The notes under the pieces were generated by a model, which saw only the letters and a program-made list of their open reading frames with translations, did no database searches and was not told where the DNA came from. From positions 168,604 through 232,603 of the forward strand of contig JAQTSC010000001.1 of NCBI GenBank assembly GCA_028711505.1: a stretch of 64,000 nucleotides of DNA, given 5' to 3'. Source of the DNA: Minisyncoccota bacterium. Lineage in GTDB: Bacteria; Patescibacteriota; Minisyncoccia; JAHISW01; Tagabacteraceae. The translations under genes were made by a program, and so were the position numbers. This document shows positions 4,353 to 46,094 of this stretch, piece by piece; position 1 is the first letter of the stretch; each line of letters starts with the position of its first letter.

Positions 4353-5393
4353 ATGATGACTCGCAGAAAAAGAAGGGTGTTTTTTCTTATATCGACAGGT
4401 GTTTTTCTGTTTGTGTCCCTTGCCGTCGTATTTTATAGCCAAGGGTACATGCTGGACAAAAATTACAAAATAACGCGCAAAGGAGGACTCTACATAAACA
4501 CACCGATTGAAAATTCCGACATATATATAAACTTAAAGAAAGAAAAGACAACCAGTTTCTTAAACCGCGATTTGCTTATGTCGAATATTGAACCCAAAAA
4601 ATATTCGATACTTATTGCCAAAGAAGGCTACTGGCCTTGGGCGAAGACGATAGAAGTCAAGCCGGGCATGGTTATAGAAGCAAGAGCGATAATGGTAAAA
4701 GAAAATCCACAGGGAGAATTTATCTTAAAAGGAAAATTCTCGCGCATCTGGTCTTCCCCATCGGAAAAAATAATTGCGCTGAAAGAAGAAAAAAACGGAG
4801 TTTTTGATTTGCTTTTCTATCTGCCGGAAAATAATGTTTTTCTCACCCCCCTCAATTCATCTTCAAAATATCTCTTGTCCTTTAAAAAAGAAATCTCCGG
4901 CGTATCTTTTGAAAACGGAAGCGTTTCCTTTAAAACGGAAAAGGGAAATATAAAAGCCGATTTTGATTTTTCAAAAAACAGCGTGTCCGCGACGCAGACG
5001 GACGTTCTTCCGGAAAAATCCGATTACGAGAAAACCGCGAGAAGAGGACAGGAAAAAATTTCATGGAATCCTGAAACAAACGAGGTTTTTGTGGAATGGC
5101 TGGAGAAAAACTCGACCCCTCCGCAATATATTTGCGAGGAAAAATGCGAATCTCCCATAAAGATATTCAAAAGCTTCTTGAAACTGAGGAACGCGGATTT
5201 CTTTCCGGGGAGACCGGATGTGGCAACGATAGCCGTGGGCAACGGAATTTACGCCCTTGAAATAGACGGAAGAGGAGGTCGCCTTATTTACCCTCTATAC
5301 AAAGGCAAAGAACCGGATTTTGCCCTGCTTGGAAGCGAAAAAAACGTCTACATAATAGACGACGGTTCTCTTATAAAAATATCTTTGGAGTAA
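4353..5393 (+). CDS. Membrane-anchored hypothetical protein (N-terminal TM helix, extracytoplasmic body)
   Basis: 346 aa ORF. Hydrophobic segment FFLISTGVFLFVSLAVVFY after a basic N-terminus. Confidence 0.5.
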   Translation: MMTRRKRRVFFLISTGVFLFVSLAVVFYSQGYMLDKNYKITRKGGLYINTPIENSDIYINLKKEKTTSFLNRDLLMSNIEPKKYSILIAKEGYWPWAKTIEVKPGMVIEARAIMVKENPQGEFILKGKFSRIWSSPSEKIIALKEEKNGVFDLLFYLPENNVFLTPLNSSSKYLLSFKKEISGVSFENGSVSFKTEKGNIKADFDFSKNSVSATQTDVLPEKSDYEKTARRGQEKISWNPETNEVFVEWLEKNSTPPQYICEEKCESPIKIFKSFLKLRNADFFPGRPDVATIAVGNGIYALEIDGRGGRLIYPLYKGKEPDFALLGSEKNVYIIDDGSLIKISLE

Positions 5394-9068: not shown

Positions 9069-9944
9069 ATGGACAAAGCCAGAATCGTATTCTTCGGCAC
9101 GCCGGAATTCTCGGTAAAAATTCTTGAGGCGATGAAAAACGCCTGTTTTTTGCCGGCACTTATAATTACCGCTCCGGACAAGCCAAAAGGACGCGGAATG
9201 AAAATGGCTCCCTCTCCCGCAAAAGCTTGGGCGGAAAAAAACTGCATAAATCATATTGAACCGTCCTCTCTTAAAAAAGACCCCGAAATAGCGATAAAGC
9301 TTTCGGAAATGAATCCCGACCTTTTTGTAGTAGCCTCTTACGGAAAAATTCTCCCGAAAGAAATTCTCGATGTCCCCCGAAAAGGCACGTTAAATGTCCA
9401 TCCTTCGCTTCTTCCCAAGCTCCGCGGCGCGTCGCCTATTCAAGGAGCAATTTTATCGGGTGAAAAAGAAACCGGAGTAACCATTATGCTTATGGACGAA
9501 AAAATGGACGAGGGTCCAATTTTGGCCAAACAAAAATTGGAATTTCCGATTGCCAATTTAAGATTTTCAGAACTGGAACAAGAGCTTGCGGAGTTTGGAG
9601 GAAAAATTCTGACGGAAACAATTCCGAAATGGCTAAATGACAAAATAACTCCGCAACCGCAAGACCACTCACAAGCCACTTACACCAAACTCATTAAAAA
9701 AGAAGACGGTGAAATAAACTGGAGCGAGCCAGCAGAAGCAATTTTTAGAAAAATACGGGCATATACTCCTTGGCCCGGAGCTTACACTTTTTATAACGGA
9801 AAAAGAATAATAATAGCTGACGCCGAAATAAAGAATGACTCGCTTGATATTAAGCGAGTCAAACCCGAAGGCAAAAACGAAATTTCTTTTAAAGAATTCT
9901 ACAAAAACAATCCCGAATTTCCTAATTGCCGAAAATCTGAATAA
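9069..9944 (+). CDS. fmt: Methionyl-tRNA formyltransferase
   Basis: ARIVFFGTPEFS, LNVHPSLLPKLRGASPIQ (the SLLP motif), plus the C-terminal Fmt domain. Start moved to the internal ATG at 9069. Confidence 0.9.
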   Translation: MDKARIVFFGTPEFSVKILEAMKNACFLPALIITAPDKPKGRGMKMAPSPAKAWAEKNCINHIEPSSLKKDPEIAIKLSEMNPDLFVVASYGKILPKEILDVPRKGTLNVHPSLLPKLRGASPIQGAILSGEKETGVTIMLMDEKMDEGPILAKQKLEFPIANLRFSELEQELAEFGGKILTETIPKWLNDKITPQPQDHSQATYTKLIKKEDGEINWSEPAEAIFRKIRAYTPWPGAYTFYNGKRIIIADAEIKNDSLDIKRVKPEGKNEISFKEFYKNNPEFPNCRKSE

Positions 9945-11565
9945 ACGGCCACAAGATAATTCCTAAAACAGACGGCGCCGCTTCATAAGAAGTTGGAAGC
10001 GATTCCGCGCTCGGCGCTGGTTCAACACTCGGCGGAACTATCTCTACTTCAATATGAGGAACTTCCACTGTGGGAACGTATTGTTCTCCCGCAGGCATTT
10101 GTTCTACTGGAGGCCTCATTTCTCCCGGGGGCAATTGCTGGTAATTGACAGAAGGCGGAACATATCCTACTCCCTGTCCGCTGTCATCCATAGGCATATA
10201 ATTACCTCCTTCTTGCGTCCTGTAATTTTCATCTCCAGGAGGCATTCCCATATCTCCTCTTTCCGGAAATTGAATTTCTTGCCGAGGCATCATCTGCGCT
10301 TGCTCGCCATTAAAGTCAGGATATTGCCCTGACTCTCCGCCAGGAGGACCGTATATTATGTCTCCCTGCTGTGGCTGTGGCATCATACCTCCTTCGCCGG
10401 GAGACATAGGGGGCATCATTCCTTCTTGAGGCATCATGCTTTCTTGAGGCTGCATCATAAAAAATTGCTGCATTCTTTGAGCTTGGTCCATCTGCTGCAT
10501 CATGCCTTGAACTCTGTCTTTGCTCATCATCCCGGTATCGGCCGCGAAATTCGCGCACTCCTCAATCCGCGCCGGATCGCCGCAATAATTGCTGCATTCT
10601 TCAATTGACCTGCATCCTCCTGGTCCGGGCTGCTCTCCCATTTTACCGATAATACTCATCTGTTTTTCCATCATTATCGCTTCTTCAGGAGAAAGAAGTC
10701 CGCTTTCTTTTGAAAAATTGAAACAAGTTTCCCTATTTTCTTCTTTACTGCAAAACGCGTCGCATTCTTCCGTGTTTTTACATCCTCCGGGACCGCCAAT
10801 GCTCATCATCTTCTGCGCTTTTTCAGCTTCTTCTCGCGGCATAAGTCCATGCTCCACCGCAAAATTCATGCACTCTTCCATACGGCTCGTATCGTCGCAA
10901 TACGCTTTGCACTCTTCGGGATTTTTACACCCTCCGGGACCCGACCCTGCCGCTTCAAGAATTTCCATCGCTTTCTGTTCGTCAATTTCCGGCCCTTTCG
11001 GCTTACCAATATCTCCCTTCGCGATTTTAATCATAAAATCTGCTTCTTCCTGGGAAATTTTTCCTTCATCAACCACAAATTTCATACATTCTTCTATATT
11101 ATCGCGATTTTTACAATAACTGTCGCAATTTTCTCTTGACTGACATCCGCCAGGCCCTCCCTTTGCCGCTTTTTCTCTTATCTTGTCCGCCTCTTCCGCG
11201 GAAGTGTATCCGTTTTGAACTCCGTAATTAAGGCACTCGTCAAGATTCTCCAAAGACCGGCAATACATATCGCAAGATTTCGGAGTGGTGCATCCACCCG
11301 GTCCGGCAACAGGGTCCTCGGGCTTATTTTCCATCTGCGCCATATCCTCCATCCTTTTGGCTTCCATCGCTGAAAAAACTCCCCGGCTTTTGCCCCACTC
11401 AATGCAAGAAATTTGATTGGCTGGATTATCGCAATAAATTTTGCATTCTTCTTGCGAATTGCAGCTGCCAAGCTCGGCAATCGGATAAGAAATTTCCAAG
11501 GGGTTTTGCGCCGAAACGACAAACCCCGCAAAAAGCAAAATCGCGATTAAAATAATTTTTCTCAT
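9922..11565 (-). CDS. Secreted protein with six tandem 4-Cys modules (GPGGC-x5-C-x3-C-x9/10-C) and a Met/Gln/Pro-rich C-terminal tail
   Basis: Signal-peptide-like N-terminus MRKIILIAILLFAGFVVSAQ. Repeats are separated by EEA-helix linkers. C-terminal hydrophobic stretch LGIILWPFIQIF. Confidence 0.7.
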   Translation of the reverse strand: MRKIILIAILLFAGFVVSAQNPLEISYPIAELGSCNSQEECKIYCDNPANQISCIEWGKSRGVFSAMEAKRMEDMAQMENKPEDPVAGPGGCTTPKSCDMYCRSLENLDECLNYGVQNGYTSAEEADKIREKAAKGGPGGCQSRENCDSYCKNRDNIEECMKFVVDEGKISQEEADFMIKIAKGDIGKPKGPEIDEQKAMEILEAAGSGPGGCKNPEECKAYCDDTSRMEECMNFAVEHGLMPREEAEKAQKMMSIGGPGGCKNTEECDAFCSKEENRETCFNFSKESGLLSPEEAIMMEKQMSIIGKMGEQPGPGGCRSIEECSNYCGDPARIEECANFAADTGMMSKDRVQGMMQQMDQAQRMQQFFMMQPQESMMPQEGMMPPMSPGEGGMMPQPQQGDIIYGPPGGESGQYPDFNGEQAQMMPRQEIQFPERGDMGMPPGDENYRTQEGGNYMPMDDSGQGVGYVPPSVNYQQLPPGEMRPPVEQMPAGEQYVPTVEVPHIEVEIVPPSVEPAPSAESLPTSYEAAPSVLGIILWPFIQIFGN

Positions 11566-31778: not shown

Positions 31779-32642
31779 TTATCTGCAGGAAGACAGCCCC
31801 TCGTCGCACCCGCACCCGTACGCGGCCCCGATGCTCACATGGTAATGATTACCTTCATTCAGACACTTCGCTTCTATATTGCACTCCCCCGCGGCTTTTT
31901 TTACTTGGTCAAAAGATAAATTTGTGCCCACATCCAAAGCGTAGCTTCCCTTTGAAGAACAATTCCTTCCTCCGTAATGACAGGAATATTGCGTGTGCTG
32001 ACAATTTTGGCTATCGTTAAAACTTTCGCCGGGACTCGTATAATTGCATGTTCCCGACACTATATTATTATCGGCTACTGAAGTTATTCTCACGCCGGAC
32101 AGCCTGCTTTCAAAACACGATTGAAATACGGCAAGCTCCGCGGAAGCGTTGGCATTGGAATTACCGGAAGAAGGCGTTTCTTCAAAAAGAGGGGCAGAAA
32201 CCTCCGGAGCGGATTTCATTTCTACCAGCTCGCAAGCGGGAAATTTTTGCCACACTTTAAACTCGCCGGTCAAAAGCACTCCTAAAATGGAATTCACGAT
32301 GGAATACGCGCTGAAAGCGATTATCAAACCAATAGCCGTGTTTTTAAATATCTCTTTCCCTTTTTCTTTTGTGCCGGGATTTCCTCCCGAAGTCATAAAA
32401 TAAAAGCCGGCAACGATAAAAGCCAAAACAGAAACCGGAAGAGTCAATTCAAAAAGAAGAAAGTTCAGGAAATTATTTACCATCGTCTCAAAATAACAAA
32501 GATTGCAAGCGCTTTCTCCCGCGCCGCCGCAAGGCACAATCCCTTTCGCAAAAGCCACAGACGGCAAAAGCAAAATCGCCGTTAAAACAGAGAAAGGCAA
32601 CAAGCCGCCTTTATTCCAGAATTGTTTAAACTGCCTGAACAT
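31779..32642 (-). CDS. Membrane/secreted Cys-rich hypothetical protein
   Basis: N-terminal hydrophobic segments, then a C-terminal half with many Cys. Confidence 0.5.
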   Translation of the reverse strand: MFRQFKQFWNKGGLLPFSVLTAILLLPSVAFAKGIVPCGGAGESACNLCYFETMVNNFLNFLLFELTLPVSVLAFIVAGFYFMTSGGNPGTKEKGKEIFKNTAIGLIIAFSAYSIVNSILGVLLTGEFKVWQKFPACELVEMKSAPEVSAPLFEETPSSGNSNANASAELAVFQSCFESRLSGVRITSVADNNIVSGTCNYTSPGESFNDSQNCQHTQYSCHYGGRNCSSKGSYALDVGTNLSFDQVKKAAGECNIEAKCLNEGNHYHVSIGAAYGCGCDEGLSSCR

Positions 32643-35791: not shown

Positions 35792-36100
35792 TTATTTGAA
35801 CAAAGAAATTGTTTTCTCGGCCTCATCCAAGAGATTCTTAAAATCAGCCGGCCCGCTGTAGCCATTTCTAACATTAAATAAAGGTTTAAGCCCCAGCTCC
35901 TGTATCAGAAAAAACAAAGCGGCGCGGGCAGGTGTTGTCAGTTCGGAAGGTTGAGGTATACCAAATAAAAAATCTCTTCTTTGTTCCCGGGCTGCCGCTT
36001 TTTCAGGTGAACAGGTAAAGATACCATTTTTTGCTTCCAGTTCTTTAAGGTTTTTTATAACCTTTTCGCATATTGCGATATCGGGGATTTTCATAAACAA
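35792..36100 (-). CDS. Hypothetical protein
   Basis: 102 aa ORF upstream of the terminator. Confidence 0.45.
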   Translation of the reverse strand: MFMKIPDIAICEKVIKNLKELEAKNGIFTCSPEKAAAREQRRDFLFGIPQPSELTTPARAALFFLIQELGLKPLFNVRNGYSGPADFKNLLDEAEKTISLFK

Positions 36101-36416
36101 CCTCCTTTTTCAATCCAAAATTTCTTTATCAAAAAAAACCGCCAGTTTTTATCTATTTAATCTATAACAAACTATATTAATTCTGTCAACTCCCGAATTA
36201 AAACCCTCGCAAACTTTTGAAATCATTTTGCCAAATCTGATACACAAATCCAAAAAACGGACAGAATTTTTGGCGGCGGATATCCAACTTGATTTATCCA
36301 ATCACGAATATACATTCCCACGCGTTCAATATGGTGATGTCTCAAAGAAGAGGCGCCCGCGAAATAAAGCCGTAACCGCACCTGCATTAGCAGACAAAGT
36401 CATTGTATTAAAGATT

Positions 36417-36464
36417 GGCATAAAAAAGAGCCCTCGGCGTTGCGAAAAAATCGCGCCGAAGGCT
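36417..36464 (-). terminator. Rho-independent terminator of the GC-rich gene
   Basis: GAGCCTTCGGCGCG...CGCCGAGGGCTC followed on the minus strand by TTTTTTAT. Confidence 0.5.
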
Positions 36465-36503
36465 CAAGGGTTAAAAAGGGGTAAACTCTCAAAATTACAA
36501 GGT

Positions 36504-37370
36504 TCAGAGCCTCCGAGACGCACCCACGCCAACGCCGTAGCCGCGGTCGCCGTCCCAGCCGCCGACGCGGAGGCCGTCCTCGCCGAAGCCGCCGACACAC
36601 GAGACGCCGCCAACGCTGCCAGCAGCGACCTTATCGGTCTTCACAATGCGCTCCGTGCAGGCTGCCCACCGCGATGAATTAGGACGGTTACCCGTCTTGC
36701 GGAAGACGAGGATGTCCTTCGTCGTTTCGGCGATGGTCGTCGGCACTTCGTACCCTTCGGGAAGCATCGCCACCTGCTCTTCGGGCTTCTTGCTCGTGGA
36801 ATCGGGAACGATGTCCTTGAGCATGAGGTACCACCTGAGTTGCATAGTTGCCACATCGGTGTGCGGCTGGCCTACGTGCCACGGGTCGTTGTTGAAATAA
36901 AATTTCGGCTGTTCCGTTGCAGGGTGCAGTTCAAGCCACTTCGCTACCGTAAGCGGAGCACCGTTGATGCGGGAAAGACCCAGGAATGCGAAATGTGTGT
37001 CCTTCACTAGCTTACCCTTGTTGAAGGGACAGGGACTGTTGAGGACGTCTTCGCCCCACGGAAACTTCCCGGCTTCACGGAGCTGTTTCTTGGTGAACTT
37101 GGCGTCGTAGTAGCTCATCCAGTCGGCATCGTCGAAGATGTTCCGACCCAGAACCACCCGAGCCAACCGTGACCCGATGGAACCGACGAGACCCTTGCGC
37201 ATCATCGCTTGCGCGATGCGGCAGGCGTACTCGTTGTCTGTACGGAAGAGATCGAAGAGGTCGCAAGGATTGCCTCCCTGCTTGGTGATTGCCCTTTCAA
37301 GAGAAGCCACACTCTCCTCGAACCCACCCTTTGTCATTGTCCAGAGACCGCTTGTCTGTCTTGTGCTCAT
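36504..37370 (-). CDS. Hypothetical protein encoded in a GC-rich foreign-looking cassette
   Basis: Strong RBS GGAGGTG 6 nt before ATG. G+C is visibly much higher than in flanking DNA. The Gly/Val-rich C-terminal tail may be an artefact of the GC-rich repeats. Confidence 0.55.
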   Translation of the reverse strand: MSTRQTSGLWTMTKGGFEESVASLERAITKQGGNPCDLFDLFRTDNEYACRIAQAMMRKGLVGSIGSRLARVVLGRNIFDDADWMSYYDAKFTKKQLREAGKFPWGEDVLNSPCPFNKGKLVKDTHFAFLGLSRINGAPLTVAKWLELHPATEQPKFYFNNDPWHVGQPHTDVATMQLRWYLMLKDIVPDSTSKKPEEQVAMLPEGYEVPTTIAETTKDILVFRKTGNRPNSSRWAACTERIVKTDKVAAGSVGGVSCVGGFGEDGLRVGGWDGDRGYGVGVGASRRL

Positions 37371-37520
37371 AGCACACCTCCATTTTTTGATTTGTTCTCC
37401 ATATCCTTCAGAGATTTTAGAGAACGGGTTACCCTTTGCCGCAGGGTGACGGTCTCATCTCTCCTATGAGACGAGCGTTTTAGGAATCAAGATTTTGACA
37501 CCCAAAACGCCCATCTCATA
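37371..37520 (-). promoter_or_regulatory. Highly structured 5' leader (nested long inverted repeats) of the GC-rich gene
   Basis: Imperfect ~22-bp stem CTATGAGATGGGCGTTTTGGG / CCTAAAACGCTCGTCTCATAG, plus GGAGAGA...TCTCT with an inner ACCCT-GCGGCAA-AGGGT hairpin. Confidence 0.35.
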
Positions 37521-37630
37521 GACTGTCTGAATCTATTTTATTCTCATTTTCAAAGGATATCTCATCACAGCAATATATTTTAGGAAAGTCAAGCCAAAGA
37601 AAAAAGTGTCGCTATAAAAACAACAACCCG

Positions 37631-37846
37631 CTTGCGGGAGATCAAAGCGACATTTACAAAGCCGCTGGCATTGCCGCGCACGAGTTGGCTTACTTTTGTA
37701 AACAAATATACGAAGTTGCCGAATCAGATGACAGGCGCATGTTGTTCTCCCAGATTTTTACGAACCTTGTCCAAAATCGAAGTGGAATAAAAAAACACCA
37801 GCTTTCGTTGATGTTTATCCTTCTTGGCTCGCTTGGAAGGATATGA
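37631..37846 (+). pseudogene. Relic C-terminal fragment of a large serine recombinase
   Basis: Reads ...DQSDIYKAAGIAAHELAYFCKQIYEVAESDDRRMLFSQIFTNLVQNRSGI. This aligns with DEHQAAGIAVHELAFRSKEIYEVADDVDMKRLLLSQLFTNLLQNG in the intact recombinase at 50148..51725. No catalytic N-terminal domain is present. Confidence 0.55.
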
Positions 37847-38095
37847 TACGAACGCTGAAATGGGAAGAGATTTTCCCTTATCCCACAGTATCTTTACAGC
37901 AGATAAGGCAGTTGTTAGCTATCGTTCAATAAAATTGTATCACTTATAATAACAATTTAATAGTTTATTAAGCCAGGAGAAGAGGCACGATGTCTCTTCT
38001 TTTTGGTTTTAGGGTGGTGGTAGTTTCCCAGTGCCATTTTATTTTTTTGAGGGGGAAGCCCTGGGGTAATTTGTCTTTTTTGTCCGAAAACCTGT

Positions 38096-38170
38096 TGTAT
38101 GTACCAGTACGTACCATACCAGTACATACTAACGGCACATTATTTGCACATAGCCACTTCTACCACGTAC
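38096..38170. repeat. GTAC/ACGTAC-containing short direct repeats (iteron-like)
   Basis: gtaccagtacgtaccataccagtacatac ... ccacgtacac. A similar ACGTAC cluster occurs at 47083-47155. Confidence 0.3.
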
Positions 38171-38314
38171 ACACCCTGTCATCGTTTGAGACATTAACTT
38201 GTTTATGCTTGGAATAACAGATGATAGCAGGGTTATAGTGTGTTAAACAAAAAGGGTGTAACCATCTTTTTACCCGTCTCAATAGGTTAAAAATACCACT
38301 ACCTATAAGGGTAG

Positions 38315-38815
38315 CTATTTTACCTCTCTGCCCTTGGTGTGATTTTGGAACAAGATATAACCGATACTAAACACAATTAAAGAGGCGCCAAGTGGTGGGA
38401 ATAGATACAACACAAGGTTTAAGATGTTATACAAAAAAGATATTATAGCGTTCAATAGTTCGACAACCTTGGGAACAACCCAAAAGTACATAATTAGAAT
38501 CAAGAAGCCCCATATAAGCCCCTTTATACCTCGATAAAGCTGCCTGTCTCCCAAGCCTCTTACTATCAGATGGTATAAGAATTGATAAAATCTCACCCAA
38601 TATAAAAATGCGCCAAATGTTACAAATACCAAGGCGCTATACAATACTCGGTTAAAAAAACTCGGCGCCTCAATAGGGTTTATCGTAGCCCACTGAAATG
38701 TCTTACCAAGCCAGAAATGCCAGAGTAAAATTGCCAAAGCAAAAACGACAGCAAATGCCGCCGATGATGCAATTTCTTTTTTATTTTTTGCTATAACTTT
38801 TTTATACCAGCTCAT
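38315..38815 (-). CDS. 4-TM membrane protein, last gene of the hsdR-hsdMS-AAA_13 operon
   Basis: 166 aa with four hydrophobic helices. Start is 3 nt after the upstream stop. Confidence 0.55.
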   Translation of the reverse strand: MSWYKKVIAKNKKEIASSAAFAVVFALAILLWHFWLGKTFQWATINPIEAPSFFNRVLYSALVFVTFGAFLYWVRFYQFLYHLIVRGLGDRQLYRGIKGLIWGFLILIMYFWVVPKVVELLNAIISFLYNILNLVLYLFPPLGASLIVFSIGYILFQNHTKGREVK

Positions 38816-38818
38816 ATT

Positions 38819-41128
38819 TTATGGCGTCGTCGTTGTCGCGGGCGTGCAAAGAGCTTTTATGTCATCGTAGTGCTCTTTGTCTGCTAACTCAATAAACTTC
38901 AATACGTTTTTAGCAATAGATTTTCCTTCAAGCATAGCTGCGGAAATTGGTCTTGAAAAATCTTGTCCGTGAGAATACTCGTGTAAAAACTTAACTACAA
39001 AATCACCCGTGCCTTTTTTGAGATGATTTGGGTCTGCAACGAATCTATTAAGTACGATACTGGTAAAATCCTCGGTTGTTCTACAAGACCATTTGAAGCC
39101 AGAAAAAAACTCTAAAACCTTCCTTGCTATATTCGCCACGAGTGGTTCGTCCAATGGTCTTATATTATTTGCAAACTGATAAAGTCGGCAAAAGAGATAT
39201 TGATATTCGCTTTTATATTCTTTAAGAAGGTCTGGGAGATTTTCAACTTTAACTTCTTGGGTAGTGTTTTCTTTATCAAGGGAAATAAGATACATCCACG
39301 AATCATTTTCTAATTGCTTGCTTAAAAACCAATCGCGCATTAAATTAAAAAACTCGAAATTGTGTGTGAGTACAATCAGCTGCCCGACATTTTTTAGTTG
39401 TCTTTTTATCAAGCCCGCCGTGCGGAATAAAAAAATACTATCCTGACTATCAACTGGGTCATCAACGACAATCAAACAATTCTCTTTATTACACCCGTCT
39501 TCTTCAAGTTTTATTAAAAAGTAGACAAGAGCAAGCACGCCTTCTTCTCCTTCGCTCAAATGCTTGGCATCTTTATTTCTTCGTTTCAAAACATAGCTTG
39601 TATCACCATCCTCCGACTCTGTAACTTCAAGGTAGATATGGGATTCACCAAAAAACTCTTTTAGTATGGCATTGATTTTATCAACTGCATCTGTTGCATT
39701 ATGTAAAGATGCTTTTTTGCTTTGGATTTTAATAATCAAATCACCACGCTCAACTTTTAATTTAGCTATCTCTGCCGCAATACGCTCATTTTCTTTTTTG
39801 TTTTGGAAATACTGCTTATCAGATAAAATCGAGGCTATTATATGTAATTCAATTTTTTCTGCTGCGTTTTTAACTTCTTCTGATATTGTTGCTACTTTTT
39901 TGTTGTGTTCAGTTATTATACTTTTAATTTTTTCCAAACTTACATTTGCCTTGTCTATGGCGTCTTTTGGGTATATTACGGCGCTATGCTTTTTAGTGCA
40001 GTCGTGTAGATTGTCTTTTTTATTTTTAAGACAATCCGTGAGAGAGCCAATTACTTCTTTTATTTTTTTGACTTGTTCTTCGAGCTCCTTCTTCGCTGTT
40101 GTATATTCTTTTGCTGGTTCGGGGAACAAGGCACTTGATTCCAACTCTAACGCGATGCCGTTATAATCATCGTTTTCAAGAGAAATTATTGCATCCTCAA
40201 TTTGCTTCTTTGTTTTTTGAAGTTCGTCGGTAAAAAAACTTCCAAGACGAGTTAAGGTTTCTCCTGGCAAACTACTTTTGCAGAATTGACATTCGGTCAA
40301 AGCCCTATCTTTGTGTAGTTTATATCCAGTCTCAACCCAATCTCGTAAATCCTTATCATCTTTAAGCTCCTTGATTTCTTGTACGTTAATTGTGGTACAA
40401 AGTAGACCATTGGCACTACCAAAAAGCTCGGAAAAATCTGGAATCGTTGCTACGTTTAATTTAATTTCTTTCTTCTCATTTTTTATAATATCTTTCTTTG
40501 CGTCCACGTCTGCCTGGTCTGCAATAATCAATGAGGCGATACTACTTTCGCTTACTACTCCACTTTCAATACGCTTATCGACTTTATTTTTGTTATAGCT
40601 TCTACCATAGTATGTATCATTCGCCAGCGGTGTGTTGGTAAAGTTTTGAGGAACTTGTCTTCCTGCCTCCGTGAGAATAGCGTCAAGTTTAGGTAATTTT
40701 CCTTGCGCTTCCTCTAACTCCTCAATGCTTTTCTGCTTTGCCTTATAATCAATATCTAACGCTTCAATTTCTTTTTTGGTCTCAACATTTTCTTTTCCAA
40801 GTATTACGATTTTCTTCGCTTGCGATTCTTCGAACAGTAGGTTTTCTTTTATAAAATCTTCATTAAAAACCCTTACATTGAGTTCGTGATTCGCTATATT
40901 GTTCTGTTTTATTGTGCCAGCGTCTGTTTGAACTGTGAACTCAACAGAGGTTAAGTCTGGGATGTGTATTGCTTTTCTTTCCAAAAAATTAAAAAGTCTG
41001 GAAATGGTAGTCTTTCCAGAACCGTTCCAACCGTAAATAAGGTTGTGCTTTTTGAGGTCATCGCCAAGCCAATTGAAGGAATCAAAAGCGTCAACATTTT
41101 TTATTTCTTTGACTTTTTTTACTATCAT
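38819..41128 (-). CDS. AAA_13-family ABC-type ATPase with coiled-coil insertion and CxxC hook (PrrC/RloC-like; putative anticodon-nuclease-type abortive-infection protein)
   Basis: Walker A GWNGSGKTT near the N-terminus, ~300-aa coiled-coil containing CQFCKS, Walker B-like LIVVDDPVDSQD, C-terminal His-containing region. Directly downstream of the type I RM genes. Confidence 0.5.
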   Translation of the reverse strand: MIVKKVKEIKNVDAFDSFNWLGDDLKKHNLIYGWNGSGKTTISRLFNFLERKAIHIPDLTSVEFTVQTDAGTIKQNNIANHELNVRVFNEDFIKENLLFEESQAKKIVILGKENVETKKEIEALDIDYKAKQKSIEELEEAQGKLPKLDAILTEAGRQVPQNFTNTPLANDTYYGRSYNKNKVDKRIESGVVSESSIASLIIADQADVDAKKDIIKNEKKEIKLNVATIPDFSELFGSANGLLCTTINVQEIKELKDDKDLRDWVETGYKLHKDRALTECQFCKSSLPGETLTRLGSFFTDELQKTKKQIEDAIISLENDDYNGIALELESSALFPEPAKEYTTAKKELEEQVKKIKEVIGSLTDCLKNKKDNLHDCTKKHSAVIYPKDAIDKANVSLEKIKSIITEHNKKVATISEEVKNAAEKIELHIIASILSDKQYFQNKKENERIAAEIAKLKVERGDLIIKIQSKKASLHNATDAVDKINAILKEFFGESHIYLEVTESEDGDTSYVLKRRNKDAKHLSEGEEGVLALVYFLIKLEEDGCNKENCLIVVDDPVDSQDSIFLFRTAGLIKRQLKNVGQLIVLTHNFEFFNLMRDWFLSKQLENDSWMYLISLDKENTTQEVKVENLPDLLKEYKSEYQYLFCRLYQFANNIRPLDEPLVANIARKVLEFFSGFKWSCRTTEDFTSIVLNRFVADPNHLKKGTGDFVVKFLHEYSHGQDFSRPISAAMLEGKSIAKNVLKFIELADKEHYDDIKALCTPATTTTP

Positions 41129-41133
41129 AATGT

Positions 41134-43575
41134 TTATTCACCCCAAACTTCGGCGATTTTAGCCTTAATCTTTTCTTCGTATATTTCAATCATCCTTTTG
41201 GCTGATTCGACGTGTTTCGATTCATTTTCAATTTCAGAGACAATCTTTGTCTGTTCTTCAATCGGTGGTAGAAGTATTGAATAGTTTGAAACAAAATTGT
41301 TTGTTAATCTCTGCTGTCCAGCAGAGCCTGTCATATTATTTTTTCCCATCTTCAAAAACCTATCTTCCGCAATATAGTAATACAATAATTCGGGCAATAT
41401 CTTTTCTGTGGAGCGTAAAACAAAGAACTCTGTCGAACCAAATCCAATACCATTGGTGAGATTTTTTGCTATACCCGCTTTTCCGTTTTCAAAACACGGA
41501 GTAATTTTTGCAAGGAGAACATCATTATCCCTAAAATAAGTATAACTTTTTATCACGTCTTTGAGCGGTTTTGTTTCTTTCGGATAGAAAAACTTTTGAT
41601 GCTCTTCGATGTCTGCCATCGGCACAAATGATACTTGGGTAGTCCCGCTTATTTTTTTGACTTCTGATTTTGCTGGGTTTATTTCACAAACTTCTTTTAA
41701 GGAAACTTTTTTCCAATTTGGATTAACTTTTATTGATGATTTTGAGTGTTCAATAATTTGCTTTGCTCCATCTATAACTTTTTGATAGTTGTTAATTTCG
41801 CCGACTATTTCTCTTTGTACCTCAATCGGAGGTAGAGGGATTTTAATTTTTGAGTATTCAGAAATCCAATATCTTTTATGTTTATGACTTACAGAACCTA
41901 TCTTCTGCATTACATAAAACAAAAATCCTATATCTGCCACATTTTCCTTTGCGTGCAATATCTTCATCGCAGATGATTTAACCTTAAAAGGAAAATCAAC
42001 GAACTTTATCGCAGTAGTAAAATCATCAAAAATAATAACGGGCAATTTTTCTTTGAAGATACCGTCTTTTTCGTTGGTGTGTCCTAAAATAAAAGTTTTT
42101 CCAGCAGTTAATACTGGTGTTGTGTAGCTGTCATCATAATCAACAGAACGAACAATATACTTTGTGGGTTGTTCATAATCCAATATTTCACCCAGACTAA
42201 CCATTTGCCATTTAGTATTATTGTTACCAACCACGGCTCTATAATGGTCTCCTGACAGGTCGTAATTTTCGTTTTCAGCAATCTTTGTTTTAAGAGCTGT
42301 CCAAGCAAATAAACTACCTTTCTTCAATAGCGGATTTTTCTTTCCCGTTGTTATTGCATTTCGCTGTGCTTGTAATACTTCAATGGCGTGGGGCAAATCA
42401 TTTCGGTCAACTGGTCTACGTTGGGCGCCAAGGTCAAATCCATCGTTAAGTACTTTTATAAACAGAACTTCATTTGATTGTTTTGAAAGTTGATTGTCAA
42501 AAAATAAAATACTGGTTCTTACGCCAGAATATGGATTGAAAACTCCCGAAGGTAAAGAAACGACAGCGTACAAACCATCCTCAACAAGTAGTTTTCTTAA
42601 TTGTTTATAGGCTCCTGCTACTTGAAAAATAATAGCCTCTGGCACGATGATACCAGCACGTCCCTTATTATTGAGATGCTCCATAATATAATCTACGAAA
42701 AGCACTTCGGCGCGGTTAGCTTGTGCCATAAAGCGCTTGTGTGGGCGTATTCCGCCTTTGGGTGTCATAAAGGGTGGATTTGCCATCATTACGTCAAAGC
42801 GCTCGTCCCACTTCTCTTCGCTTGTTAGCGTGTCATATTCGTGGATATTTGGACTTGGGAAGCCGTGTAGATACAGATTTACAAGCGATAACTTCACCAT
42901 ATCGGGTGAAATATCATAGCCAGTAAGATTGCCCATTAAGCGTTTCTTTTCATCTGGGGTAAGCGGTTTATTCTTATTTGATTTAAGAATATGTTTGTAT
43001 GCAGAAATAAGAAATCCTGCCGTGCCACAAGCGGGGTCAAGTATTGTTTCGTCTTTCTTTGGGTCAACAACTTCAACGATAAAATCAATAATATGTCGCG
43101 GCGTTCTGAACTGTCCTGCGTCGCCCTGAGAGCCAAGGATTGAAAGTAAATACTCAAACGCATCACCAAGATTTTCACTGTGGTCGTAATTAAAAAAGTT
43201 TATATCTTTCAAAAATAGATTGAGAGTTTCTGGGTCGCGATATGGTAAAAAAGCATCTTTGAAAACATCACGAAAGAGTTGTGGAAGATGTGGATTTTTC
43301 GACATCTTTGTAATAGCTTCCACATAAAGATTCAAACGCTCCTGTCCGCCAAGTTTAGCATCCATCATTTTGCCCCAAGCATATTTTTCAAATCCATTCG
43401 TAAAAAACTGCGCCTTGCCCTTCGGTAAAGATGCAGCTCGCTTATCCATATCATCCATAAACTTATAGATAAGCGCTGTGGTGATTTGTTCCACTTGGGC
43501 TTTCGGGTCTGGGACTTTACCAACTAAAATATCCCGCGCCGAATCAATTTTCTTTTTTATATCTGTTGTTAGCAT
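41134..43575 (-). CDS. hsdMS: Type I restriction-modification N6-adenine methyltransferase fused to specificity subunit (HsdM-HsdS)
   Basis: HsdM N-terminus (QVEQITTALIYKFMDDMD), motif I LDPACGTAGFL, motif IV NPPF. About 370 C-terminal residues carry two TRD-like halves with conserved HsdS-type spacer helices. Confidence 0.8.
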   Translation of the reverse strand: MLTTDIKKKIDSARDILVGKVPDPKAQVEQITTALIYKFMDDMDKRAASLPKGKAQFFTNGFEKYAWGKMMDAKLGGQERLNLYVEAITKMSKNPHLPQLFRDVFKDAFLPYRDPETLNLFLKDINFFNYDHSENLGDAFEYLLSILGSQGDAGQFRTPRHIIDFIVEVVDPKKDETILDPACGTAGFLISAYKHILKSNKNKPLTPDEKKRLMGNLTGYDISPDMVKLSLVNLYLHGFPSPNIHEYDTLTSEEKWDERFDVMMANPPFMTPKGGIRPHKRFMAQANRAEVLFVDYIMEHLNNKGRAGIIVPEAIIFQVAGAYKQLRKLLVEDGLYAVVSLPSGVFNPYSGVRTSILFFDNQLSKQSNEVLFIKVLNDGFDLGAQRRPVDRNDLPHAIEVLQAQRNAITTGKKNPLLKKGSLFAWTALKTKIAENENYDLSGDHYRAVVGNNNTKWQMVSLGEILDYEQPTKYIVRSVDYDDSYTTPVLTAGKTFILGHTNEKDGIFKEKLPVIIFDDFTTAIKFVDFPFKVKSSAMKILHAKENVADIGFLFYVMQKIGSVSHKHKRYWISEYSKIKIPLPPIEVQREIVGEINNYQKVIDGAKQIIEHSKSSIKVNPNWKKVSLKEVCEINPAKSEVKKISGTTQVSFVPMADIEEHQKFFYPKETKPLKDVIKSYTYFRDNDVLLAKITPCFENGKAGIAKNLTNGIGFGSTEFFVLRSTEKILPELLYYYIAEDRFLKMGKNNMTGSAGQQRLTNNFVSNYSILLPPIEEQTKIVSEIENESKHVESAKRMIEIYEEKIKAKIAEVWGE

Positions 43576-43577
43576 AA

Positions 43578-46094
43578 TTACATATAGGCGTTAAGCGAAA
43601 CATAATCCTTCACATATTCTGGCACTTTCTCAATCCAACCATTTAAGGCTTCAAGGTCTGCAAAAGTTAGTTTTGGATTGGTGGCGAGCCGCGCATATTC
43701 ACCCTTTTCGATAATGTCTCGTATTTCATTATCGGTTATGTATGCCTTCAAGTAATTTTTAATCGGCATTACGAATTGATTTTCTGGCTTATTGATAGCA
43801 ACGAACTTCTCAAACTCTCCCTCCAATAATTCGTCTTTTGATTTGAAGTTAGTGATACCACCGAAGATTTTTTCTATAAACTCGCGCAAGCTGATGCGTC
43901 GGTCAGACTTCACTGATTTACGTAATTTGTCCAGATTGAAGAAATCTTCTGGCTTATCAAAAATCTTGTCTTTTACATAATCTTCAATCGTCGCCAAATC
44001 TCCTTCATCATATTTTTGTTTAATAAAGGAGTCTTCTTTTATTGCTGCCTCAAACTTTTCGAATAGCTTGCGGTCAATCTTCATCCCTTCAACACCCACC
44101 GCTTTTTCAGTAAATGTTTTTAATGGGTCTGGCTGCGTAATTGAAATCTCGTCAATGTTTATTCCGCCTTCTCCACTTTCACCGCCAGTGCCAGTTTTAG
44201 CAGGTAAATGTAAAACCTCATCGTAATCATACTTTTCTTCAAAGTATTCGCAGTTAGCAAAGAAATCAAAGAGCTTAAACTTTTCTTTTGATACTTTTGC
44301 TTCCTGTATTTTGCCACCTTCTTTTTCTTGGTGGGTAAATGTGAACTTGCGCGTGCCACGTCCCTTAATCTGAATAAAATCAGTCGGAGAAAATATCGGG
44401 CGCATCAAGGCAACGTTGAGTATATCTTGGCAATCATAACCAGTTGTCATCATCCCAACTGTTACACAAAGACGCGTCTTGCTGGAATGATAGCCGTCCA
44501 AAAACTTTGTATAGCCATTAAGATTGTTGTTAGCAAAACTCACCGTAAAATCTTGGGCACTTGGAATATTTGAAGTAACCTGTACGGCAAAATCAGAATT
44601 ATATTTGCCTGGATAAAGTTGGTCGGCAAACTGATTAAGTATTTGTGTAACTTTGGATGCGTGTTTTTGACTAACACAAAAAACAATACCCTTACCAATT
44701 TCTCCCGTTATTGGGTCTTTAAGAGCATTTTCAAAAAATGTTTTGCAAAAAATCTGATTGGTTTTATCGGAGAAGAACTTGCGTTCAAAATCAGTATGGA
44801 AAAAAGTCTGTTCTTCTTCCTTACCGTTTTCATCTTCAACCATCATCGCATAGCCCTTTTCAGAAAGAAGCTCGGTTGTTATTTCGGTACGCGCATCAGC
44901 AACAACTGGGTTTATTAAATAGCCTTCCTTAACGCCATCAAGCAAGGTGTATCGAAATGTTGGCTCGCCAGTTTCGCAGCCAAAAGTTTTGTAGGTATCA
45001 AAAAGTTGGCGGCGCTCCCAAGCGCGCGGGTCTTTGGTGTTGAGTTTTTCAGGGTTGATTCCTTTGAGATAATTTTTAGGAGTTGCAGTAAGTCCGAGTT
45101 TATAGCCAACAAAATACTCAAATACTGCACGACTATTGCCGCCGATTGAACGATGGGCTTCATCGGAAATTATGAGGTCAAAATCCGTAGGAGAGAATAA
45201 TTTTTGATACTTATTATTAAAGGAAAGACTTTGCACAGTGGAAACAACAATCTCTGCCTTGCGCCAGTCATCTTTGTTTTCTTTATAAACAACGGTTGTA
45301 TAATCCTTTGAAAGCCACTTCTTGAAGTTCTTGGCTGCCTGGTCTTCCAATTCCAAACGGTCAACAAGAAATAAAATACGCTTGGCATTTCCGCTTTTTA
45401 GGAAAAGTTTAATGATAGCCGCTGATACAAGAGTTTTACCCGTGCCTGTCGCCATCTCAAACAAATAACGGTCATTGCCTTTGGCGGCGGATTCTTGAAG
45501 AGATTTGATGGCGTGTAATTGATATGGGCGCAAAAACTTTAATCCTTCCGTGTCAATAAGATTCTGTTGCTGCTCTTCGTTCTCCCAGCGTGGGTCGCTC
45601 TTATAATCTGTCTTCTGGGTAAGTACTATGTAATCATTTTCTACATCCTCATCGGCAAGACGCTTGGAATTAGGTTTGAATTGTTCAAAATGTTGAAGTG
45701 ATTGTGGTGTTGGAAATTGGACAATGATTGTAGGGTTGCCGCGCTCCAAGTCCCAGAAATAGTGAAGGTTACCGTTAGAAAGAATAACAAAACGTACATT
45801 TAGGGACTGGGCATAGCTGCGCGCTTGTTCTTTGCCGTCAAGCGGGTCTTTGTCTTCGGACTTCGCTTCAAGCACTACATACGGGAATCCTTTTTCATCA
45901 AGTAATAAAAAATCAACAAAACCATTTTTTGTTTTTTCGAAATCACCACCAAAAGCATCGACTGCTTTTTTAGTAAGTTTAGTGTTAAGTTCAAGGGCGA
46001 TGTTAGCCTTGCCTTTTTCATCATCAAAAAATCTCCAACCAGACTTTTGGAGGAGGTCGTTTATTTTTATTCGTGATTTAGCTTCTTTTTGCAT
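43578..46094 (-). CDS. hsdR: Type I restriction enzyme R subunit (PD-(D/E)xK nuclease + SF2 helicase)
   Basis: N-terminal VDFLLLDEKGFPYVVLEAKS (D...EAK), Walker A MATGTGKT, DEAH (LIISDEAHRS), motif VI QIKGRGTR. Confidence 0.8.
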   Translation of the reverse strand: MQKEAKSRIKINDLLQKSGWRFFDDEKGKANIALELNTKLTKKAVDAFGGDFEKTKNGFVDFLLLDEKGFPYVVLEAKSEDKDPLDGKEQARSYAQSLNVRFVILSNGNLHYFWDLERGNPTIIVQFPTPQSLQHFEQFKPNSKRLADEDVENDYIVLTQKTDYKSDPRWENEEQQQNLIDTEGLKFLRPYQLHAIKSLQESAAKGNDRYLFEMATGTGKTLVSAAIIKLFLKSGNAKRILFLVDRLELEDQAAKNFKKWLSKDYTTVVYKENKDDWRKAEIVVSTVQSLSFNNKYQKLFSPTDFDLIISDEAHRSIGGNSRAVFEYFVGYKLGLTATPKNYLKGINPEKLNTKDPRAWERRQLFDTYKTFGCETGEPTFRYTLLDGVKEGYLINPVVADARTEITTELLSEKGYAMMVEDENGKEEEQTFFHTDFERKFFSDKTNQIFCKTFFENALKDPITGEIGKGIVFCVSQKHASKVTQILNQFADQLYPGKYNSDFAVQVTSNIPSAQDFTVSFANNNLNGYTKFLDGYHSSKTRLCVTVGMMTTGYDCQDILNVALMRPIFSPTDFIQIKGRGTRKFTFTHQEKEGGKIQEAKVSKEKFKLFDFFANCEYFEEKYDYDEVLHLPAKTGTGGESGEGGINIDEISITQPDPLKTFTEKAVGVEGMKIDRKLFEKFEAAIKEDSFIKQKYDEGDLATIEDYVKDKIFDKPEDFFNLDKLRKSVKSDRRISLREFIEKIFGGITNFKSKDELLEGEFEKFVAINKPENQFVMPIKNYLKAYITDNEIRDIIEKGEYARLATNPKLTFADLEALNGWIEKVPEYVKDYVSLNAYM

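Follow-up and report, generated by a model that had tools for sequence, protein, structure and literature searches.

Organization of the locus

The locus lies on the minus strand of the window, i.e. the whole 64-kb stretch of DNA that was analysed, and its central element is an intact open reading frame (ORF) of 288 codons (Table 1). The GGAGGTG ribosome binding site and the ORF had already been pointed out in the preliminary description of this DNA, and both were found in place; in the homologous loci the Shine-Dalgarno sequence is conserved as GGAGGTG or GGAGATG. In the window the -10 element of the promoter-like site is a weak one, with 4 of 6 matches, and a consensus scanner did not report the site. 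In the alignment, a TTGACT-17-TAnAAT arrangement occupies the equivalent place upstream of the leader in the loci L001 and L003, and the upstream homology to other loci stops at about 37600.

Table 1. Features of the GC-rich locus, in positions of the window (TR, template repeat; VR, variable region).
Feature	Position	Strand	Basis
Promoter-like site (putative function): -35 TTGACT (37592..37587), 17-nt spacer, -10 TGTGAT (37569..37564)	37564..37592	minus
Conserved structured 5' leader RNA, ~130 nt	37391..37520	minus	covariance model, covariation, fold energy
Leader P1, 20-22-bp hairpin	37463-37522	minus
Leader P3, 5-bp hairpin	37431-37447	minus
Leader P4a/P4b, nested stem	37394-37425	minus
Shine-Dalgarno GGAGGTG, 4 nt upstream of ATG	37375..37381	minus	read from sequence
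DGR variable (target) protein, 288 aa, ATG start	36504..37370	minus	intact ORF
VR, encoding ...CVGGFGEDGLRVGGWDGDRGYGVGVGASRRL	36512..36630	minus	107-nt alignment to the L003 template repeat
GC-rich hairpin (36428-36465) with U-run (36420-36427)	36420..36465	minus	fold -27.9 kcal/mol, z = -4.5 vs shuffles
Remnant of the next transcription unit: extended -10-like TAATACAAT (36410..36402) and ~70 nt of the conserved 5' part of the presumed TR RNA	36332..36410	minus	homology

The G+C content of the ORF is 58.9% (GC3 72%), while the other 867-nt windows of the 64 kb have a mean of 40.2% (sd 3.2, maximum 49.4%), which places the ORF at z = 5.9. When 867-nt windows were slid along the sequence, the global G+C maximum began at 36500. 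The adjoining genes have a G+C of 36-41% and a GC3 of 32-43%. The impression that the G+C of this segment is much above that of both flanks was thus verified by the window-wise computation.

The target protein and its family

The 288-aa protein keeps all the invariant residues of its family, and the exact protein is represented by a single database member. It consists of an N-terminal helical domain (approx. aa 1-75) and an FGE-like C-type-lectin domain (approx. aa 76-288). Searches of Pfam, NCBIfam, PHROGs and PADLOC with the protein gave no match, a PDB sequence search with the family profile returned spurious helical-barrel matches only, and neither a signal peptide nor a membrane anchor was evident by eye in the protein sequence. 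A confident AlphaFold model was obtained, and it displays the FGE-like C-type-lectin fold seen in the solved DGR variable proteins. The protein had been described as not recognisable; by its homologs and its predicted structure it is a C-type-lectin-fold DGR variable protein.

In DGRs, a reverse transcriptase (RT) and Avd reverse-transcribe the RNA of the TR, misincorporating opposite adenines, and the resulting cDNA replaces the VR and thereby changes the AAC codons that specify the ligand-binding face of the C-type lectin. Many Patescibacteria homologs of the window protein, at 60-83% identity, have a template repeat and genes for bAvd and an RVT_1 reverse transcriptase as neighbours; bAvd and RVT_1 are adjacent to the target in L001-L005, L009 and many metagenome loci. 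The window protein is 74-83% identical to the targets of the complete cassettes L001, L003 and L009 and of L007, which is decayed but has kept its TR. DGRs of this type are common in ultra-small Patescibacteria. The order in complete cassettes is promoter, structured leader, target gene with C-terminal VR, hairpin/terminator, second promoter, TR, avd (on the opposite strand) and RT. At 50% identity the family falls into 993 clusters. Members with a named source, and the genome loci, are nearly all from Patescibacteria, the majority of the members being metagenome sequences without a source name, and no relatives were found among viral contigs (IMG/VR). When GTDB genomes were scanned with a pattern for the TR, 9 of the 22 matches had no target, RT or Avd homolog, about 9 being expected by chance; four of these nine represent one unrelated conserved archaeal gene.

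The VR of the window was aligned with the TR of L003 over 107 positions, 27 of which are template adenines. Twenty of the 24 mismatches fall on these adenines (hypergeometric P = 2.9e-12) and 19 of the 20 are A to G, the test being indirect because the cognate TR is missing and a heterologous one had to be used. The TR/VR pairs of 36 related loci have 604 mismatches, 546 of which coincide with TR adenines, and this concentration on adenines is the hallmark of DGRs. In the protein alignment of the family, hypervariability is located exactly at the AAC codons of the template. The Kuenenbacteria loci L001, L036 and L044 carry one identical TR with different VRs, which shows that DGRs are active elsewhere in the family. 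Within the VR of the window, 9 nt are duplicated in tandem (36604-36612 and 36613-36621).

Base composition and history of the target module

In the 66 loci with usable flanks the target has a G+C of 57.7% and the flank 42.7%, while the RT has 37.5%. GC-richness is confined to the target module, the RT and Avd genes of these cassettes being AT-rich. In related loci the G+C climbs about 100 nt before the start codon, is 0.57-0.66 across the ORF, peaks in its final 150 nt and is 0.44-0.48 directly past the stop codon. In the Saccharibacteria-type homologs the scaffold is host-like (0.41-0.44) and the VR alone is GC-rich, and the L088 homolog shows no GC-richness. GC-richness is a family-wide trait of the target module rather than a sign that something happened recently in this genome.

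Leaky adenine mutagenesis across the whole gene was considered as the source of the G+C and was rejected: both A and T are depleted at 4-fold sites, where the A/T ratios of the target resemble those of the RT and of host genes. The enrichment is strand-symmetric and therefore not a by-product of adenine mutagenesis.

At 4-fold sites, divergence of the target was below that of the RT or Avd in 24 of 28 cassette pairs. Stationarity was tested by taking the majority consensus as a proxy of the ancestor; 142 changes from the clade consensus were GC to AT and 35 were AT to GC, which implies an equilibrium near 50%; the composition is not stationary. The lower divergence of the target together with the erosion of its G+C fits a horizontal spread from a GC-richer ancestor. 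The high G+C would then have been inherited from such an ancestor, spreading horizontally among Patescibacteria, and would now be eroding towards that of the host. The earlier suggestion of a recent horizontal acquisition therefore survives in its horizontal part, while "recent" had to be abandoned, since the GC-richness is family-wide. Constraint on synonymous sites, and not a younger age, might also account for the target's lower synonymous divergence.

It is also conceivable, if somewhat doubtful, that the high G+C is upheld in the target by selection or by a gene-specific biased process, for example selection on codons or mRNA structure or GC-biased repair tied to retrohoming, instead of being a fading legacy of transfer. 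Several observations speak for such maintenance besides the AT-richness of the neighbouring RT and Avd: the G+C of the target is unaffected by that of the host flanks (slope -0.04, flanks 36-54%), homologs near 4-fold saturation relative to the window (identity 0.31-0.46) have mostly 59-81% G+C at those sites, and some target pairs at 50% amino-acid identity are still 0.5-0.6 identical at 4-fold sites, the baseline being 0.34. However, the host-like scaffolds of the Saccharibacteria-type homologs and the four-to-one excess of GC to AT changes weaken the case for active maintenance, as do the ordinary composition of L088 and the strand symmetry of the enrichment.

The contrast of composition within the cassettes suggests that DGR modules have separate histories, and the less diverged synonymous sites of the target and its net loss of GC likewise point in this direction.

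Probable truncation of the cassette

The 3' hairpin starts 39 nt past the stop codon. Its sequence is conserved in 16 loci with almost no covariation (double-sided change in 3 of 24 pairs), and a simple pattern scanner did not list it as a terminator. Judged from its sequence, the hairpin followed by the U-run is probably an intrinsic terminator, in agreement with the claim that the unit has a terminator of its own.

DGRs have a GC-rich inverted repeat downstream of the VR, and the hairpin occupies this position; given the U-run behind it, however, it may be no more than a terminator. The conserved GC-rich end of the VR, GTTGGCGTGGGTGCGTC, may correspond to an IMH-like element.

From 36503 to about 36332 the window is 77-83% identical to the first ~170 nt past the stop codon of complete cassettes. 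In these the TR begins 360-500 nt after the stop, while the homology of the window ends at ~36332, before any TR. In the 64-kb window an RT was sought by tblastn and, over six frames, with the family profile HMM (best E 0.18; positive control 1.9e-150), Avd was sought likewise by tblastn and a profile HMM, and a TR or second VR copy by blastn with a word size of 7; none was found. A cognate TR would be expected to resemble TGGCAACGTCTCGTGTGTCGGCAACTTC...GTTGGCGTGGGTGCGTC, with adenines at the ~27 variable positions. Since only ~170 nt of the downstream spacer is left, and TR, avd and RT are lacking, the locus has the form of a truncated DGR. It takes its place in a decay series, in which L003 is complete, L007 has the TR and a fragment of the RT, and the window has the start of the spacer only. 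In L006, L053, L049 and L056 just ~81 nt is retained past the stop codon, and about one third of the related loci are copies detached from any RT.

The cassette is thus very probably the target module of a Patescibacteria-type DGR which has lost its diversifying machinery. The locus would have been derived by deletion from a complete cassette and would now encode a "frozen" variant, except in the case that another DGR of the genome acts on it in trans; the window covers 64 kb of a 234-kb contig from an incomplete MAG, and such a DGR may lie outside it. On the other hand, the ORF, the leader and the 3' end of the VR are all intact, which is not the picture of a pseudogene in decay. The proposal that the segment is a remnant of a mobile element's cargo was essentially right, the element being a DGR without template, Avd and RT in the 64 kb.

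The trans alternative, namely that the gene is an active, non-adjacent target diversified by a complete DGR beyond the 64-kb window, would be consistent with the intactness of the ORF with all its invariant residues, with that of the leader (133.9 bits) and with the retention of the conserved GC-rich VR 3' end GTTGGCGTGGGTGCGTC, the cognate TR being absent. Non-adjacent or remote targets of other DGRs are documented (PMC5758913), and L007 carries a second RT/Avd pair about 7 kb away. However, the stump of its own spacer lies directly downstream of the gene, which points to a local deletion and not to a dedicated remote target. RT, Avd and TR are absent from the 64 kb (of a 234-kb contig), and past its variable positions the VR carries two or three substitutions relative to active cassettes, SRRL being encoded where about 90% of the homologs have SRK. 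Diversification in trans is therefore considered unlikely, and the loss of the machinery remains the preferred explanation.

The structured 5' leader

The fold of the leader has an energy of -62.7 kcal/mol (z = -5.9), and none of 200 shuffles was as stable. The nested long hairpins that had been proposed for it were confirmed: the ~22-bp stem corresponds to P1, the ACCCT/AGGGT stem to P3, and TCTCT/GGAGA lies within P4a. With the covariance model R1 the leader scored 133.9 bits and was the sole forward match in the 64 kb. Covariation against the homologous loci was strong. In the leader alignment 95% of the cells were paired, as compared with 33-53% in slid controls, and 19-22 of the 36 pairs had changed on both sides, as compared with 4-10 in the controls; the observed pairing and covariation were matched by none of 500 shuffles, with fitted and unfitted alignments alike. 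An alternative P2 hairpin (93% paired) and a pseudoknot stem (74%) were above the slid controls but not above the shuffles; both may form, having the potential to pair, but their covariation is insufficient.

Neither a terminator nor a clear helix sequestering the Shine-Dalgarno sequence was found within the leader. The leader had no match in Rfam (Rfam 15) at E<=10 over 36100-38400, and there was none at gathering thresholds across the whole 64-kb window. In the literature, covered in part, no description of the leader or of a target-only GC enrichment was found, and the searched parts of the DGR surveys mention neither a structured 5' leader nor the contrast of composition between the target and RT/Avd.

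A conserved, covarying structure located between the promoter-like site and the ribosome binding site is thus a family-wide feature, and it would be expected to act in cis as an RNA controlling the expression of the variable protein. There is good support for regarding the leader as a candidate new structured RNA that accompanies DGR targets; it is apparently undescribed.

A role as DNA (an operator or recombination site), or as a plain 5' hairpin protecting the mRNA, might also be proposed, as P1 is nearly palindromic, its base is strongly conserved in sequence (GAGACGAGC/GCTCGTCTC), it is the only part of the leader kept upstream of distant short homologs, and neither of the regulatory elements sought was detected. 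However, the compensatory changes in P1, P3 and P4 maintain pairing and not sequence, and G-U pairs, which form in RNA only, are frequent in the helices. Between the arms of P1 there are 20-40 nt with loops that vary, which does not resemble an operator, and the invariance of several unpaired positions recalls RNAs that bind ligands or proteins. A function other than that of a regulatory RNA thus seems improbable.

Integrity of the assembly

The suggestion of a chimera, in which the assembly would have fused a GC-rich fragment of foreign origin to an AT-rich contig, and for which the abrupt shift of composition at both ends and the shortness of many homolog-bearing contigs might be cited, is rejected as practically without probability: the same gene, leader and 3' segment are found inside AT-rich flanks at 66 independently assembled loci (NCBI, JGI, ENA, Logan), and homology between the loci extends over the junctions, i.e. 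promoter/leader on one side and post-stop spacer on the other. Where homolog-bearing contigs are short, this is explained by the TR/VR repeat, which breaks assemblies, as exemplified by L025, which ends at the VR, and L027, which starts at the TR, both in one MAG.

Comparison with known systems

The model of the window protein shares its FGE-like C-type-lectin fold with TvpA of Treponema denticola (2y3c), Mtd of Bordetella phage BPP-1 (1yu0) and TaqVP of Thermus aquaticus (5vf4). In contrast, there is no detectable sequence similarity between the window protein and any solved structure, and the N-terminal helical domain of ~75 aa is its own.

Cellular DGRs of Patescibacteria/CPR were reportedly treated by Paul and co-workers in 2017. 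They are likewise chromosomal and found in the same host group, they have a single, mostly unannotated target, and RT, Avd and TR are adjacent to it, whereas the window copy is without these three. They correspond to the "CPR set" of Wu et al. 2018 (PMC5758913) and to DGR clade 2 of Roux et al. 2021 (PMC8144416). Non-adjacent or remote targets are known in Treponema and Legionella (Wu et al. 2018, PMC5758913). These resemble the window gene in being VR-bearing genes without a neighbouring RT, but they are served by a TR and RT elsewhere in the genome, while the window gene has the stump of its own spacer instead.

Riboswitch-like or protein-binding leaders and the motifs RT-1 to RT-19 (Weinberg et al. 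2017, PMC5737381) are compared with the window leader as conserved multi-helix RNAs with covariation, placed between promoter and ribosome binding site and linked to a retroelement. However, RT-1 to RT-19 adjoin RT genes and are in Rfam, whereas the window leader precedes the target gene, has no Rfam match and persists in copies without RT.

Implications

The large family of "hypothetical proteins" without a Pfam, NCBIfam or PHROG model can now be identified as C-type-lectin-fold DGR variable proteins. In an AT-rich Patescibacteria genome, a DGR target can in practice be recognized by a sharp GC island whose gene product has a Gly-rich C-terminus, and also by the fragmentation of contigs at such a gene; neither sign should be taken for misassembly. 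The decay series and the roughly one third of RT-detached copies bear on the question of how often hypervariable proteins become fixed.

It is tentatively proposed, at somewhat less than even confidence, that the leader represents a new cis-regulatory RNA class (riboswitch or protein-binding) for the variable-protein genes of Patescibacteria DGRs and that, in addition, the target module circulates apart from RT and Avd. If this is true, a sensed signal would gate the expression of a hypervariable binding protein, and the module of promoter, leader, gene, spacer and template would move horizontally as a unit, DGR cassettes being mosaics. The leader thus offers a lead into the regulation of diversified binding proteins in organisms with tiny genomes.

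A GC-rich gene and its surroundings

The G+C content, determined in 300-nt windows, rose from 0.38 to 0.54-0.63 across about 36.3-37.35 kb and then returned to about 0.40. The 867-nt open reading frame (ORF) found here had a G+C content of 58.9% (GC3 72%), the highest of the whole window (z = 5.9), compared with a mean of 40.2% (sd 3.2, maximum 49.4%) for all 867-nt windows at non-overlapping positions; the genes beside it had 36-41% G+C and a GC3 of 32-43%. The composition anomaly is genuine and its edges are sharp, in agreement with the preliminary description, in which the G+C had been judged much higher than in the flanks. The anatomy proposed there (a 288-aa ORF, a GGAGGTG ribosome-binding site, a folded leader and a terminator hairpin) was also confirmed in all points, and the fold energy of the 160 nt located 5' of the start codon was -62.7 kcal/mol (z = -5.9). 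The window's second-highest GC region (49%) encodes a secreted protein with repeats of the GPGGC...EEC...YC type and a Pro/Met/Gln/Gly-rich tail; its G+C is due to this amino-acid content and has no relation to the gene studied here.

Features of the GC-rich cassette and of its surroundings
Feature	Position	Strand	Details
Target ORF	36504-37370	-	288 codons, start ATG
Ribosome-binding site	4 nt upstream of ORF start	-	GGAGGTG, from sequence
Leader	37391-37520		single match of covariance model R1 in the window, 133.9 bits
Leader helix P1			20 bp; GAGACGAGCGUUUUGG... / ...CCAAAACGCUCGUCUC
Leader helix P3			5 bp
Leader helix P4a			7 bp
Leader helix P4b			4 bp
Variable repeat	36512-36618	-	last ~107 nt of the ORF
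9-nt tandem duplication	36604-36621	-	within the variable repeat; TGGCAGCGT then TGGCGGCGT
Hairpin and U-run	hairpin 36428-36465	-	fold z = -4.5
Post-stop stretch	36503 to ~36332		~170 nt, 77-83% identity to the same stretch of complete cassettes
Same hairpin and U-run, conserved	within post-stop stretch	-	homology to complete cassettes
Conserved extended -10-like box	within post-stop stretch	-	TGATACAAT; window form TAATACAAT
~70 nt leading to the template repeat in complete cassettes	within post-stop stretch	-	homology
Secreted protein	9922-11565	-	547 aa
Pilin-type protein	31779-32642	-	287 aa; TrbC/VirB2 and T4SS_pilin domains
Probable pseudogene	37610-37935	+	...AAHELAYFCKQIYEVAESDDRRMLFSQIFTNLVQNRSGIKK / KTPAFVDVYPSWLAWKDMIRTLKWEEIFPYPTVSLQQIRQLLAIVQ*
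Hydrophobic ORF	38315-38815		166 aa, no family match
Defence-type cluster	38819-46094	-	directly upstream of the cassette
AAA_13 ATPase	within 38819-46094	-	769 aa; PADLOC candidate PDC-S06, E 1e-140
Fused Type I methyltransferase and specificity subunit	within 38819-46094	-	813 aa
Type I restriction subunit	within 38819-46094	-	838 aa

A B12-binding radical-SAM gene and a small unannotated ORF lie on one side of the gene; on the other side a small membrane-like ORF, the AAA_13/PDC-S06 ATPase, the fused Type I M+S subunit and the Type I R subunit are found. The setting resembles a variable neighbourhood of the defence type. Around the cassette no transposase, integrase or boundary-marking flanking repeat of a mobile element was seen. 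The protein with pilin domains, encoded ~4 kb from the cassette in this Patescibacteria genome, is a pilin of type IV secretion or of conjugation. The ORF-poor stretch between the cassette promoter and the next gene resembles a frameshifted gene fragment, the two ORF pieces of which had no match in Pfam, and is probably a pseudogene.

The gene belongs to a family of retroelement targets

The 288-aa protein, described earlier as not recognisable, had no match in Pfam, NCBIfam, PHROGs or PADLOC; the genomic context of its homologs identifies it as the target of a diversity-generating retroelement (DGR). Large-database searches returned 210 close homologs and 993 clusters at 50% identity. Many homologs were 80-83% identical to the window protein, every one was annotated as hypothetical, and the named sources were Kuenenbacteria, Yanofskybacteria, Falkowbacteria, Liptonbacteria and other Patescibacteria. 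Downstream of the homolog in L001/L002, L003-L005 and L009 come an opposite-strand bAvd (accessory variability determinant) gene and then an RVT_1 reverse transcriptase (RT), and in these loci a second copy of the last ~110 nt of the target gene sits ~360-500 nt past the stop codon. The two copies differed at adenines of the downstream copy in 18/18 cases in L001 and in 17/20 cases in L003. Over 36 loci, 546 of the 604 differences between template repeat (TR) and variable repeat (VR) were at TR adenines (A->G 312, A->T 149, A->C 85). The defining signature of DGRs is the mutagenesis of TR adenines into the VR. Because of the bAvd and RVT_1 context and the adenine-specific copy differences, the family was identified as DGR targets.

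A target gene of 82% identity, with a typical leader and 38% G+C flanks, is found on a contig titled 'uncultured Gammaproteobacteria bacterium' (L014), which is probably Patescibacteria DNA that was binned or labelled wrongly. A 21-nt VR pattern, for which ~9 chance matches are expected in 596 Gb, also matched four archaeal contigs (L017, L022, L026 and L028; Methanosarcinales / Methanobacteriota MAGs). A cross-domain DGR was rejected here, as the four contigs share an unrelated conserved gene containing the 21-mer, without target, RT or Avd homology.

The VR of the window protein

The window VR could be aligned without gaps to the TR of L003, a complete cassette, with 24 differences, 20 of which fell on the 27 TR adenines (hypergeometric P = 2.9e-12). 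Among these 20 substitutions 19 were A->G, and the Gly-rich C-terminus of the protein arose because AAC became GGC. A 48-sequence protein alignment showed a conserved scaffold, and in the CVGxFxxxGLxVxxWxGxRxxxVGxGASRK motif the variation was mainly at residues coded by TR AAC. The A->G skew, compared with 57% family-wide (binomial P = 2e-4), was likewise seen in some Kuenenbacteria VRs (13/14 in L036) and could be due to RT bias or to selection for Gly. The 9-nt duplication has its counterpart in TGGCAACGT of related templates; through it the protein gains three residues (VGG) that are absent from every other aligned homolog. Its two units are unlike at one template-adenine position, which implies that either the duplication was present in the lost cognate TR or the VR was altered after mutagenesis.

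An AlphaFold2 model built from the 48-sequence alignment was confident (pLDDT 89.6, pTM 0.80), and the protein is predicted to consist of a helical N-terminal domain (~75 aa) and a C-type-lectin-fold domain with the VR at its end. Three of the structures likened to the model are solved DGR variable proteins. No sequence-level similarity of the window protein to solved structures was found.

The window locus as a probable orphaned target

In the 64-kb window neither a second VR copy (blastn, word size 7) nor an RT or Avd (tblastn) was found, and profile HMMs built on family members (13 for RT, 22 for Avd) likewise found neither, with a best E-value of 0.18 in the six frames, compared with 1.9e-150 for a divergent control. 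Homology to complete cassettes ends with the post-stop stretch, and a deletion of the TR, avd and RT from this locus is suggested by the sequence. The relatives form a series of cassette-loss states: L003 is complete, L007, syntenic with it, is reduced to the TR plus part of the RT, L038 has an RT fragment and no TR, and L006, L053, L049 and L056 keep just ~81 nt past the stop. Where 4 kb or more of downstream sequence was available, about one third of the loci had neither TR nor RT. A DGR elsewhere in the source genome may serve the window gene in trans, but this is the less probable reading.

The window element agreed with the DGR variable proteins in homology, in the adenine-specific differences of its VR and in its predicted fold, and with a complete DGR in none of the features examined (no RT, TR or Avd in the 64 kb). 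It fits best as the target gene of a known kind of system from which it has been orphaned. The remnant of a mobile element's cargo, suggested previously, thus stands as a DGR target without RT, TR and Avd, with the type of element now named. Wu et al. 2018 (PMC5758913) and Roux et al. 2021 (PMC8144416) describe the DGRs of Patescibacteria as abundant, mainly cellular and single-target, with unannotated targets. The observation is accounted for and falls within a known class. Paul and co-workers are also said to have described, in 2017, abundant, mainly cellular and single-target DGRs with unannotated targets in Patescibacteria.

In the MAG H41-bin131_1 one contig (L025) ends at the target VR (4728-4748) and another (L027) begins with the TR/Avd/RT part (40-60); many homologs lie on 1-3 kb contigs because the TR/VR repeat breaks short-read assemblies.

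The cause of the GC-richness

The mean G+C of the targets was 57.7%, compared with 42.7% in the flanks (66 loci with usable flanks); the adjacent RT had 37.5% (34 loci), and target G+C was independent of host G+C (slope -0.04). The GC anomaly is not confined to the source genome of the window. Of the recent horizontal acquisition put forward in the preliminary description, the horizontal spread of the target module is supported as the cause, although the GC-richness recurs at related loci and does not mark a recent event here.

When complete cassettes from different lineages were compared, mean identity at 4-fold sites was 0.53 for the target scaffold, 0.34 for the RT and 0.33 for the Avd, and the target was less diverged at these sites than RT or Avd in 24 of 28 cassette pairs. 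The module histories are discordant within cassettes: between L001 and L009 the identity was 86% for Avd (4-fold sites 0.58), 58% for RT (0.29) and 82% for the target (0.69). These cassettes, and likewise L003 and L057, look mosaic. The most economical reading, given with moderate confidence, is that the target module comes from a GC-richer ancestor, that its spread or replacement is of later date than that of RT and Avd, and that it is ameliorating. Synonymous-site constraint may add to the GC-richness; some target pairs at 50% amino-acid identity had a 4-fold identity of 0.5-0.6 compared with a codon-aware baseline of 0.34. This contrast of the target with RT and Avd in composition and divergence was not found in those portions of the DGR literature that the search covered.

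Active maintenance of the target G+C, at first favoured because 4-fold sites are still G+C-rich in near-saturated pairs, is weakened by three results. Saccharibacteria-type homologs have host-like scaffolds and are GC-rich in the VR only, the homolog L088 is not GC-rich at all, and 142 GC->AT compared with 35 AT->GC changes from the consensus were counted (18 non-redundant main-clade genes, 70 4-fold columns), 13 and 1, respectively, in the window copy. This excess indicates a non-stationary composition decaying to ~50% or lower. Leaky adenine mutagenesis was rejected, since 4-fold sites are poor in A (0.12) and T (0.17) alike and the effect is therefore strand-symmetric. The assembly chimera considered earlier was not borne out and is excluded for practical purposes, because the contrast of GC-rich target and AT-richer flanks recurs at the 66 loci.

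A conserved structured leader RNA

The upstream regions could be aligned across loci, including those without RT. RNAalifold gave four helices for 25 leader sequences, and 20 of the 36 pairs had compensatory changes. The covariance model R1 matched a forward-oriented leader directly 5' of the target gene in nearly all loci; where the homolog is distant and its N-terminus short, P1 alone was recognised. The cells were paired in 95% of cases, compared with 33-53% in slid controls, and 19-22 of the 36 pairs had double-sided changes, compared with 4-10; the observed values were reached by 0/500 shuffles in both cases. The counts from the model-fitted alignment agreed with those from a plain MAFFT alignment. 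The nested hairpins noted previously are borne out by covariation at homologous loci, and the 5' UTR leader is concluded to be a true structured RNA. The pairing potential of an H-type pseudoknot stem (CCGY/RCGG) and of an alternative hairpin, formed by the P1 3' strand with a downstream GAGAYRAG, is also conserved, with sequence variation too low for covariation. In L007 (9828-9977) an additional ~21-nt GC-rich hairpin (GCCTGCCTGCCGGTAGGCAGG) lies between the P2 region and P3, a position that therefore tolerates insertions. A promoter-like TTGACT-17-TAnAAT site is located 5' of the leader, with a weak -10 in the window (TGTGAT).

Weinberg et al. 2017 (PMC5737381) described RT-associated motifs that adjoin RT genes and are present in Rfam, whereas the leader had no family match in Rfam 15, even at E<=10. 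A family-wide structured leader was not described in the portions of the DGR literature and RNA libraries covered by the search. The putative function of the leader would be to control the expression of the variable protein, and it is this RNA that has the greatest value for follow-up.
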